In this document: piece after piece, positions 13,695 through 15,515 of the stretch
Layout: the number at the start of each line of letters is the position of its first letter
Numbering within the stretch: position 1 is the first letter of the stretch
Source: Chlorobiota bacterium
GTDB taxonomy: Bacteria; Bacteroidota; Ignavibacteria; OLB7
Direction of reading: 5' to 3'
Assembly: GCA_963711465.1 (NCBI GenBank)
Contig: CAVQEG010000001.1
Coordinates: forward strand, 2,014,332-2,078,331
Length of the DNA: 64,000 nt
Position numbers and translations under genes: made by a program
The notes under the pieces: generated by a model
Told to the model about the DNA's origin: nothing
The model's database searches: none
What the model saw: the letters and a program-made list of their open reading frames with translations, nothing else

Positions 13695-15515
13695 TCATTG
13701 ATCGGTGGACGGAATCTGACCGTCACTCTCATATGTTCCATCATCCGACCGCTTCCAGACCGTTCCGTTCTCGCCGAATCGAGCGAATTTCGCCTTACCG
13801 CTACCAGTCTTCAACGTCTGGACCGGCTTGGGTGCAACACCAGTCGCATCTGCATTTGGGTTACCGGACTTCCCTTGGAAGGTGAGGACCATATGAGCAT
13901 CTCGGAGGGCTTGGACATCATCCCAGACTTCCGGTCTCGTCGTCGCGCCATGAACGTACAGCCAATCGATTGACGTTAACACGACACCGTACTTGTCGAC
14001 ATTTGCCATTGTCCATGTTTCGTCCACCATCGGATCATCCTCATAACCGAGCTGGTATGTCTCTGCCGCTGGATGGGCGACAATGTCGCGTGCCTGGCGA
14101 GGCGACAGATGAACAACCACAGCTACCGTGTAGCCAGCCTCAGTAAGCACGTCTTCGACACCCTCGCCAAACGCTGCGCCCATACTATGAGTTACAATAT
14201 TGTATACCTCACCTGACTTCAGCCCCTCAATCAACGTCTCCATATTGTTTCTAGCCCAAATTCTACCGGCATTCCGCCGCTGATCCTCCGTCGAAAGTCC
14301 GGGGCATGAGCCATTGATGTAGGTTGAATTTCCGGAATAGTCGCCAAAGAACTCCTCGGCGCGCCTTTCAAATTCTCCATCTCCGCCCCAATATCGAGCC
14401 TCAGAGTATTTTCCTATAAACATTTTCCATGCCCATCCCGGAAGATCCTCTCCGACATATCCGTTTATATATAGAATCTTGTTCCCGTCTGGGTCGATCA
14501 CATTCAGCGGGCTACAGATTCCATAGACGTAAGGTCCTGTCGATGGATCCTCGGACGAACAACGATCCACTGACATCCATCTGCCAAGCCGCGAATCGTA
14601 CAATCGTGCCCCGTAATCATACACATTCCCCTCCCCACTCCACTCATCATCCCTCTCCTTCCCATTGAACCCAAACCGCCACTCCCCACCTTCCCAACTC
14701 CGTCCCGGCTGCACCATGCCGAACGCGTAGTAGTTCGCGTAGCTGCTCACCACCGCCACGAACGGATACGTCCCTGACTGCGCCGTCGGTTCCTTCATAT
14801 CCGTCACCACCACCCGCACGTTGCCCAGGTGGTCCTTCAGCTCGTAGTACTTCTCCGAGAGCACCCGCACGTGGTACTCGTTCGTCGTGTCGATCGCAGT
14901 GCCTTCGCCTGCCGGACGGGCGAGATCCGTCGGCTTCGTCTCGGCGATGCGTCCCTGCGCGCCGTTGCCGTAGATCACCCACTCGGCCAGTCGGAATGCT
15001 TCGGCACAGTTGGGCTCGCACGGGTTCGGATCGGTGCCGTCCGGTATCCCGTCGGAGTCCTGATCGCCGGCTGGTCCCGCCGTGCATGGACACGGATCGA
15101 CCTCATCCGGAACGCCGTCGCCATCGATGTCGCCGCCCGGAGGGGGGTTGGTGGGGTCCAGCGAGTCCGGATCGCACAGGTTCGGAATGCCGTCGTTGTC
15201 GGTGTCGACGCCTTCGTGCGGGCTCGGCTCCGGATCGACACAGTTCTCGTAGATCGCCACCACCTTGCCCCCTGCTTCGTAGACGTAGTATGTGGAGCGC
15301 ACCTGCGTCGTGTCCGTCGGATCGATCACCTCCTTGCGCACCCGGTTGCCGGCGGCGTCATAGGTGAACCGAAGCACCGTCACGTTGTTCTTCTCGACTG
15401 AGAGCACCTTGCCGTAGATGCTCCACTCGATGTTCGTGATGTTCTCCGAGACGTCGCCGATCATGTTTCCGATCGCATCGTACGTGTAGTTGCGTGTGTC
15501 GTTCATCACAACCAA
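13695..15515 (-). CDS. Orphan rhs C-terminal cassette 1. It comprises the last RHS repeats, a TSP3 block, the core end and a GxSxG lipase/esterase-like toxin tip
   Basis: It begins at a TTG at 15515 or an ATG at 15506 (MNDTRNYTYDAIGNMIGDVSENITNIEWS), aligned to Rhs1. The core end is GGEWRFGFNGKERDDEW...DPDGN. The tip contains IVTHSMGAAFGEG (GHSxG-type nucleophile elbow) at about 14164-14215. Confidence 0.7.
   Translation of the reverse strand: MVVMNDTRNYTYDAIGNMIGDVSENITNIEWSIYGKVLSVEKNNVTVLRFTYDAAGNRVRKEVIDPTDTTQVRSTYYVYEAGGKVVAIYENCVDPEPSPHEGVDTDNDGIPNLCDPDSLDPTNPPPGGDIDGDGVPDEVDPCPCTAGPAGDQDSDGIPDGTDPNPCEPNCAEAFRLAEWVIYGNGAQGRIAETKPTDLARPAGEGTAIDTTNEYHVRVLSEKYYELKDHLGNVRVVVTDMKEPTAQSGTYPFVAVVSSYANYYAFGMVQPGRSWEGGEWRFGFNGKERDDEWSGEGNVYDYGARLYDSRLGRWMSVDRCSSEDPSTGPYVYGICSPLNVIDPDGNKILYINGYVGEDLPGWAWKMFIGKYSEARYWGGDGEFERRAEEFFGDYSGNSTYINGSCPGLSTEDQRRNAGRIWARNNMETLIEGLKSGEVYNIVTHSMGAAFGEGVEDVLTEAGYTVAVVVHLSPRQARDIVAHPAAETYQLGYEDDPMVDETWTMANVDKYGVVLTSIDWLYVHGATTRPEVWDDVQALRDAHMVLTFQGKSGNPNADATGVAPKPVQTLKTGSGKAKFARFGENGTVWKRSDDGTYESDGQIPSTDQ

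Follow-up and report, generated by a model that had tools for sequence, protein, structure and literature searches.

Introduction

Orphan rhs and cdiA-CT cassettes, as pictured in the C-terminal displacement model (e.g., Jackson et al., 2009, as cited in PMC13018210), combine a truncated core with a unique tip of lower GC content and an immunity gene, and they are arrayed downstream of a full-length gene. A cassette with these characters, its immunity gene being a predicted one, lies at 13385-15515 on the minus strand of a 64 kb stretch of DNA from a Chlorobiota bacterium (assembly GCA_963711465.1, contig CAVQEG010000001.1, positions 2,014,332 to 2,078,331). This whole stretch is called the window, and nucleotide positions are given in its coordinates. 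The cassette comprises a toxin open reading frame (ORF), whose variable C-terminal tip is the main subject here, and a small ORF. It departs from the described cassettes in that full-length rhs genes flank its array on both sides and the number of orphans in the array is at least four; otherwise, nothing about it is unusual. An earlier note on this DNA had proposed a lipase- or esterase-like toxin of the Tle kind, with a membrane protein as its immunity partner. The observations in that note are partly confirmed, and its interpretation is partly supported, by the analysis described below.

As judged from the order of its signature residues, the closest published description of the tip is Tox-ABhydrolase2 (Zhang, de Souza, Anantharaman, Iyer and Aravind, 2012), a C-terminal alpha/beta-hydrolase toxin domain of RHS or filamentous polymorphic toxins with the signature NG, [DE], [KR], HSxG, D and H (PMC3482391). 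Tox-ABhydrolase2 is reported from Proteobacteria, Acidobacteria, Chlamydiae and fungi, but not from Bacteroidetes, and is paired with the cytoplasmic Imm-SUKH; its authors were unable to name a substrate for it (PMC3482391). Compared by this published signature only, the tip has the matching positions in the same order, namely N8-G9, D/N58 (Asn in the window), R70, H100-S101-x-G103, D151 and H179. In contrast, the family of the tip is found almost entirely in the Fibrobacteres-Chlorobi-Bacteroidetes (FCB) group, and its partners are membrane proteins or lipoproteins rather than SUKH proteins. Rhs toxins with an alpha/beta-hydrolase tip were known as early as 2012, and the overall picture is unchanged by the present case. 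What is gained is a confident fold, a candidate catalytic triad and a testable immunity partner for a large family that lacks a Pfam or NCBIfam model.

Two further groups of lipid-directed toxins offer points of comparison. Classical Tle phospholipases are neutralized by Tli proteins, which are periplasmic proteins or lipoproteins (PMC9860674, PMC13133936). The phospholipase toxin Tox-Act1 is paired with Imm-Act1, a protein with two transmembrane segments, from which its authors argue for a membrane-lipid target (PMC12994826). The window cassette resembles Tox-Act1/Imm-Act1 in pairing a toxin, here with a presumed phospholipase role, with a small transmembrane protein as its predicted immunity partner. 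Tox-Act1 differs in its unrelated fold, a permuted NlpC/P60 domain with a Cys nucleophile, and in its delivery by a type VI secretion system (T6SS) in Salmonella.

The reading favored here, with a probability of roughly 0.65, is that the orphan cassette encodes a tip that hydrolyzes carboxylesters of envelope lipids by means of a predicted triad, and that a 102-residue protein encoded downstream neutralizes it. The 263-residue tip would form a compact, lid-less alpha/beta-hydrolase after ...VIDPDG and would use a Ser101-Asp151-His179 triad (numbered from the first residue of the tip) together with an oxyanion turn made by Asn-Gly; a small beta subdomain would complete its C-terminus. Acting from the periplasmic side, it would strip acyl chains off the envelope lipids of the target cell as a phospholipase A or lysophospholipase. 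In the producer, the tip would be neutralized by a three-helix inner-membrane protein. The cassette is intact and adds one more example to a type of system already known, Rhs orphans with a lipase-like alpha/beta-hydrolase tip, and the family to which this tip belongs is unnamed in Pfam and NCBIfam.

Anatomy of the orphan Rhs cassette

The cassette is a classical orphan Rhs toxin/immunity cassette. Its toxin ORF (13695..15515, minus strand) is 606 residues long when counted from a TTG codon, and the public gene call of 603 residues is identical to it. Most of this ORF (14487..15515) is a truncated Rhs/YD-repeat core, matched by YD_repeat_2x (TIGR01643) and RHS_repeat, which carries an Asp-rich TSP3-like insert and lacks the N-terminal delivery region. 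The start of the ORF falls within the Rhs/YD-repeat region, 44 nt after an upstream small ORF that itself looks like an immunity gene. Toward its end, the core matches the Rhs-associated core domain TIGR03696 of NCBIfam (ORF residues 262-344, 14484..14732; E = 1.3e-13; score 51.3 bits, cut-off 32.5), which closes with VIDPDG, the region of the autoproteolytic cleavage motif. Since the core ends in ...SPLNVIDPDG, the variable toxin tip comprises ORF residues 344-606 (14486..13698, 263 residues). The small ORF (13385..13693) starts with an ATG at 13693, one base after the TGA of the toxin gene, and ends with a TAA at 13387-13385.

Upstream of the tip, a block at 14610..15504 recurs in each full-length rhs gene and in three further orphans. 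By blastn, its copies are 843-895 bp long and 86-93% identical, and they lie at 2028-2877 (in the full-length gene ending at 1131), at 26374-27230 (in the full-length gene ending at 25469) and, within three further truncated rhs fragments, at 16944-17788, 20079-20918 and 23427-24320. Homology with the other rhs copies stops at 14610-14662, and the sequence past that point is unique. The range given for the tip in the earlier note reached up to 14680, which coincides with this end of rhs homology (14610-14660), whereas the toxin domain itself starts at 14486, after DPDG. GC content follows the same division: the core has 0.61, the tip 0.52 and the small ORF 0.50, and this dip is repeated at each tip of the rhs array.

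These features are those of Rhs orphans: a core with DPxG directly before a variable tip, and a truncated 5' end homologous to the 3' part of the core in full-length rhs genes. Because about 850-900 bp of the cassette duplicate the 3' core that each full-length rhs gene of the window carries, the cassette can be viewed as a recombination reserve, a spare and presumably unexpressed Rhs end. Under the displacement model, homologous recombination would swap its tip onto an expressed rhs gene. The orphan fragment alone, which has no N-terminal region and little of the shell, would neither form a shell nor be exported by itself.

Fold of the toxin tip

The tip is supported as a serine alpha/beta-hydrolase of the lipase/esterase type by structure prediction, by profile comparison and by residue conservation. 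An AlphaFold2 model computed from an alignment of 32 sequences has a mean predicted local distance difference test (pLDDT) score of 90.1 and a predicted template-modeling (TM) score of 0.89; from the single tip sequence, pLDDT is 43.5. In the model, the catalytic alpha/beta-hydrolase core (tip residues 1-197, 13896..14486) contains strands 3-8, 54-58, 94-100, 120-127, 142-148 and 165-169 with helices between them, and strand 3-8 ends in Asn-Gly. The remaining residues (198-263, 13698..13895) form a C-terminal beta-rich subdomain of five strands, with a G-T-x-F motif loosely kept in relatives. An aromatic loop of lower confidence, DLPGWAWKMFIGK (tip residues 14-26, 14409-14447, minus strand), adjoins the predicted oxyanion turn, and either this loop or the C-terminal subdomain could be an interfacial or membrane-binding element.

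A comparison of the tip with alpha/beta-hydrolases by HHpred or Foldseek had been suggested in the earlier note, where failure to predict such a fold would have counted against a lipase-like toxin; the fold is predicted, in support of that proposal. In a Foldseek search against the PDB, 64 matches were obtained at E<=1e-3, and every one of the best 50 is an alpha/beta hydrolase (probability 0.97-1.00, TM-score 0.31-0.65). They include Mycobacterium tuberculosis TesA, PETases and cutinases, LipA-type lipases, an Archaeoglobus fulgidus lipase and Legionella PlaB. The highest TM-score on the target, 0.65, belongs to LipA-type lipases.

Sequence profiles lead to the same group of enzymes. When a profile of 50 family members was compared with all PDB sequences, lipases ranked first, beginning with the metagenomic LipA-like Lip_vut1 (6nkc, E = 9.5e-5) and followed by variants of Bacillus subtilis LipA (2e-4 to 1.6e-2) and staphylococcal lipases (about 0.01). 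In these alignments, Ser101 of the family falls on the lipase nucleophile (Ser77 of the LipA type) and Asp151 on the position of LipA Asp133. An hhalign comparison of the first 32-sequence alignment with a LipA sequence gave a probability of 62% over only 38 columns, a weak result that the profile and Foldseek comparisons supersede. Searched one by one against Pfam, the 50 relatives have mainly sub-threshold matches, spread over families of the alpha/beta-hydrolase type: Thioesterase (8), PGAP1 (7), Palm_thioest (4), DUF676 (3), Abhydrolase_5/6, DUF900 and Lipase_3. A handful of other matches, Tubulin (6 members) among them, are unrelated and put down to chance.

The family I.4 minimal lipases (B. 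subtilis LipA/EstA and Lip_vut1) are the best profile matches (E 1e-4 to 1e-2) and, with target-normalized TM-scores of 0.60-0.65, belong to the best fold matches. They have in common with the tip a small, lid-less, six-stranded core, an x-H-S-M-G elbow, and Ser and Asp residues aligned to S77 and D133. Identity is nevertheless about 13-17%, and the catalytic His is unaligned by sequence. LipA, a secreted housekeeping enzyme rather than a toxin, also lacks the invariant Tyr-Trp pair, the invariant Arg and the C-terminal beta subdomain of the present family.

Predicted catalytic residues and family conservation

The nucleophile motif lies in the peptide NIVTHSMGAAFGEG, at 14201..14160 on the minus strand. 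A GHSMG elbow had been reported here, but this was a misreading: the elbow is T-H-S-M-G (14178..14192), with tip Ser101 (ORF Ser444) at 14184-14186. The location given for a GxSxG signature, 14164-14215, was about right, although strict GxSxG is absent from the tip, since the residue two positions before the serine is Thr; the motif is better written [TS]HSxG. Of 5000 shuffled versions of the tip, 42% contained [GAST]xSxG at least once and 17% strict GxSxG; [GAST]HSxG alone was rare, at 1.1%. With the relaxed form found in 42% of shuffled tips, the motif alone is no evidence.

Conservation across the family carries more weight. In an alignment of 92 diverse relatives, Ser101 is kept in every sequence, as are Gly9, Tyr32, Trp33, Arg70 and Gly109, while His100 and Gly103 are each kept in 91/92 and Asn8 in 87/92. 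Asp151 is present in 88/92 (the other four have gaps) and His179 in 84/92, with five further gaps. The residue at position -2 from Ser101 is T in 46, S in 37, G in 5 and A in 4 relatives, so that the usual form is [TS]-H-S-x-G, and the Gly that the GxSxG motif of Tle proteins has at this position occurs in only 5/92.

Placed on the AlphaFold2 model, these residues take up the positions expected of a hydrolase. Ser101 sits between strand 94-100 and helix 103-116, as in a nucleophile elbow, and the order Ser101, Asp151, His179, after strands 94-100, 142-148 and 165-169, is that of a predicted triad. Asp151 (ORF Asp494, 14034..14036) is the predicted catalytic acid: it is conserved, follows strand 142-148 and aligns to the LipA Asp133 position. 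The predicted catalytic base is His179 (ORF His522, 13950..13952), likewise conserved, which lies beyond strand 165-169, where helix 178-181 begins. From conservation and the model, Asn8-Gly9 at the end of strand 1 (14460..14465) is predicted to form the oxyanion-hole turn, in the position of the HG dipeptide of lipases. The invariant Arg70 (14277..14279) possibly binds an anionic head group; it is also aligned in a second lipase-like tip of the array. On this evidence, the tip of 263 residues is, with high probability, a small esterase or lipase of the serine type, and the earlier proposal of a lipase/esterase-like serine alpha/beta-hydrolase holds, with the fold predicted and the triad candidates kept in the 92 relatives.

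The family was delimited by an exhaustive HMMER search over 1.84 billion cluster representatives, which found relatives of the tip in 235 clusters (at 50% identity) at E<=1e-3 and in 77 at E<=1e-10. The closest non-self relative has 37-41% identity. In nearly all relatives, the domain is C-terminal, and it starts directly after the DPxG of the Rhs core in 57 of the 78 with enough upstream sequence. The family amounts to at least 235 clusters and 166 genomic loci, mostly in Bacteroidota, including gut Segatella, Prevotella and Bacteroides. Public labels of the relatives read only "RHS repeat-associated core domain-containing protein" or "hypothetical", and the tip is without a Pfam domain.

A chance motif or a decaying tip, followed by a small ORF that is no gene, would make the cassette an inert relic. 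The insignificance of the motif by itself, the truncation of the cassette and the frameshift in another orphan of the array all fit such a relic, as does a scan that found no match to a sigma-70 promoter, the sigma-70 consensus being uninformative for FCB-group bacteria. Yet every family-invariant residue is intact, the ORF is uninterrupted and the AlphaFold2 model is confident, and the partner ORF is coupled to the toxin gene stop to start, in the same architecture as at more than 20 loci of relatives. A relic is accordingly very unlikely.

The downstream small ORF and the partners of relatives

The small ORF was correctly described in the earlier note as encoding a membrane protein. It specifies 102 residues with a basic N-terminus and three hydrophobic segments, each of about 19 residues or more, and its hydropathy, position and GC content mark it as the predicted cognate immunity gene, with three transmembrane segments. 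A membrane partner had been taken there as what would be expected for immunity to a membrane-targeting lipase. The proposal was half right, in that the partner is a membrane protein; classical Tli proteins are of the periplasmic or lipoprotein kind, not polytopic, and the nearest precedent is Imm-Act1, with two transmembrane segments, which belongs to a non-homologous phospholipase toxin (PMC12994826).

The gene after the toxin was surveyed in 80 genomic loci of relatives, nearly all from Bacteroidota, with some from Chlorobiota and Ignavibacteriae. At 36/80 loci, the downstream protein has 68-118 residues and two or three transmembrane segments. A protein of about 145 residues with an N-terminal anchor or lipobox (e.g., ...LLHSGCG) follows at 14/80 loci and at the locus of a standalone homologue. 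The remaining loci mostly lack a usable ORF or have heterogeneous singletons, and no recurrent partner of a cytoplasmic type was found among the 80. None of the partner types matches a Pfam family. The window small ORF resembles the commonest type in size and three-helix architecture only.

Since every recognizable partner is membrane-embedded or exported, the enzyme would act in the periplasm or at the membrane surface, and a role as a cytoplasmic thioesterase is disfavored. Action in the periplasm or at the envelope is moderately well supported by this pattern, and the likeliest role of the 102-residue protein, with its three transmembrane segments, is protection of the producer. The localization of the partners also suggests a phospholipase A or lysophospholipase activity. 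How polytopic membrane proteins of 70-110 residues would neutralize such an enzyme is the most interesting point raised by the family. Its consistently tiny polytopic or lipoprotein partners provide an entry point to the neutralization of lipid-targeting toxins in Bacteroidota, and also to the question of how Sec-exported Rhs proteins without a T6SS deliver cargo that acts in the periplasm.

One variant of this scheme would go further. The tip would be no generic phospholipase but an esterase for a lineage-specific envelope lipid. Partners of two or three helices, almost without soluble surface, would protect from within the bilayer; they would screen the substrate or bind an interfacial loop of the toxin, where Tli plugs the active site. 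This variant is speculative and rather improbable; if true, immunity to such lipid-targeting toxins, carried by Rhs proteins that are exported through Sec, would work by a mechanism different from that of Tli.

Two side observations concern the pairing. Within the one toxin family, three unrelated partner types occur (loci L002-L081): a protein of about 105 residues with three transmembrane segments, mostly found with HSEG-type toxins; one of about 75 residues with two such segments; and a lipoprotein or anchored protein of about 145 residues, found with HSMG-type toxins. The standalone homologue (locus L001) lies in a repeated DUF6603 cassette.

Substrate class

Several results weigh against an envelope-lipid hydrolase with a dedicated immunity partner. 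No Pfam or NCBIfam model reaches its threshold on the tip, the best being Abhydrolase_6 (E = 0.009, 17.1 bits against 26.3), and phmmer of the single tip sequence against the PDB gave no match. Similarity to solved structures is only moderate (query-normalized TM-scores of 0.31-0.46), and the top Foldseek matches mix thioesterases, PETases or cutinases, and lipases. No search found a close relative of the tip: a word-indexed protein search, tblastn against plasmids and a metagenome scan were all empty, and the best identity is 41%. The window small ORF has no sequence similarity to the partners of relatives, the best phmmer E-value being 0.21 and the family hidden Markov model giving no significant match. 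Finally, no delivery apparatus was identified in the window.

The fold matches span lipases, cutinases and thioesterases without separating these classes. A genuine Ser-Asp-His hydrolase toxin could act on another ester or thioester of the envelope, such as the acyl chains of lipoproteins or lipid A, a lipid-linked cell-wall precursor, an O-acetyl group or a lipid specific to the FCB group. Several lines would agree with such a substrate, including the thioesterases near the top of the Foldseek results (TesA, RedJ and juvenimicin TE), the lead of Thioesterase and PGAP1 among the Pfam matches of individual members, and the invariant Y32-W33 and R70, which are not classical lipase residues. In addition, Zhang et al. 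(2012) assigned no lipase relationship to Tox-ABhydrolase2, whose signature fits this family (PMC3482391). The sequence profile, on the other hand, returns true lipases first, and exclusively so down to E of about 0.02, and membrane-embedded partners fit a membrane-lipid target best. A different envelope substrate is, consequently, a possible but clearly less probable alternative to the hydrolysis of membrane lipids, which remains the preferred reading.

Relation to Tle effectors and delivery

Tle1-Tle4 are antibacterial serine hydrolases that act on envelope lipids from the periplasm and adjoin an envelope-located immunity gene, a description that the present cassette would share. They differ from it in architecture: the present family forms the C-terminal tip of Rhs proteins with Sec signals, and the window partner is polytopic rather than a soluble or lipoprotein Tli. 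Membership in the Tle families was considered and rejected, as neither DUF2235 (Tle1) nor DUF3274 (Tle3) has a Pfam match in the tip or in 50 relatives and no T6SS linkage was seen in the scanned ORFs of the window or in six long relatives.

The Tle likeness suggested in the earlier note is not supported by these comparisons. A T6SS lipase effector of the Tle type, neutralized by a Tli-like periplasmic protein, would have the same logic of a serine-hydrolase toxin with an envelope-located partner, and some relatives do pair with lipoproteins. However, the tip matches no Tle-defining Pfam family, whether DUF2235, DUF3274 or another, and no T6SS, PAAR or VgrG gene is present among the scanned ORFs of the 64-kb window. 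Six long relatives contain only DUF6443, fn3 and RHS repeats, without such markers, and the relatives P0022 and P0027 have signal-peptide-like N-termini. The full-length Rhs proteins of the window likewise begin with a Sec-type signal peptide, e.g., ...SIAIALLALAVPHVVQAQ. An effector of the Tle type is, on balance, highly improbable, and a Sec-exported Rhs protein carrying an envelope-lipid hydrolase is preferred.

The two full-length Rhs proteins (1131-9287 and 25469-33028, minus strand) are nearly identical, are about 2500 residues long and carry Asp-rich TSP3-like inserts and different tips. Proteins with the C-terminal tail of the type IX secretion system (T9SS) are encoded near the rhs genes, at 45578-46492 and 54864-56996.

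Other features of the array and the window

Besides the T9SS-tail proteins, ORFs of the window include Skp-like, extracytoplasmic function (ECF) sigma, FG-GAP, DUF7948/SBBP and IS30 genes and a pair of defence ATPase and helicase genes. The array between the two full-length rhs genes also holds a second lipase-like orphan tip, unrelated in appearance (22530-24280, minus strand), in which an Rhs fragment (23564-24280) is frameshifted into ORF 22530-23837. The core of the latter ends in AAVDLDGLE, and the ORF carries ...VVHGT...ITITGFSHGG...HPIESH, with a match to Pfam Lipase_3 of 25.5 bits against a cut-off of 22. By hhalign, this tip is distantly linked to the present family (probability 87.5%, E = 3.6e-6), including an R-x3-G motif and the Ser and Asp positions. 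The ORF downstream of it (22008-22466, minus strand) looks like a lipoprotein or anchored protein.

The stretch 12613-13340 (minus strand), directly after the small ORF with three transmembrane segments, opens with a tiny Rhs remnant, ...LYDAQGNRLRKQYFGPANP, at about 13200-13340. The ORF that follows the remnant resembles KwaB, a protein of the Kiwa defence system, in its C-terminal half only (PF16162, E = 5e-15; positions 142-305 of 306 in the NCBIfam KwaB model, far below its cut-off), and the rhs array may have truncated a defence gene here. Just ahead of the second full-length rhs gene lies the gene for a DUF7948/SBBP beta-propeller protein of 1319 residues (8657-12616, minus strand). The N-terminal motif of this protein, VFIENRGQW.STVR, is repeated in an ORF at 18070-18594 (minus strand), and the array therefore seems to hold a duplicated module boundary.

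Toward the far end of the window, at 59650-63439 on the plus strand, an AAA/OLD-like ATPase with weak PtuA- or retron-effector-like matches adjoins a UvrD/Rep-like helicase, and the pair looks like a Gabija- or Septu-like anti-phage module. A fragment of an IS30 transposase is located at 58558-59217.

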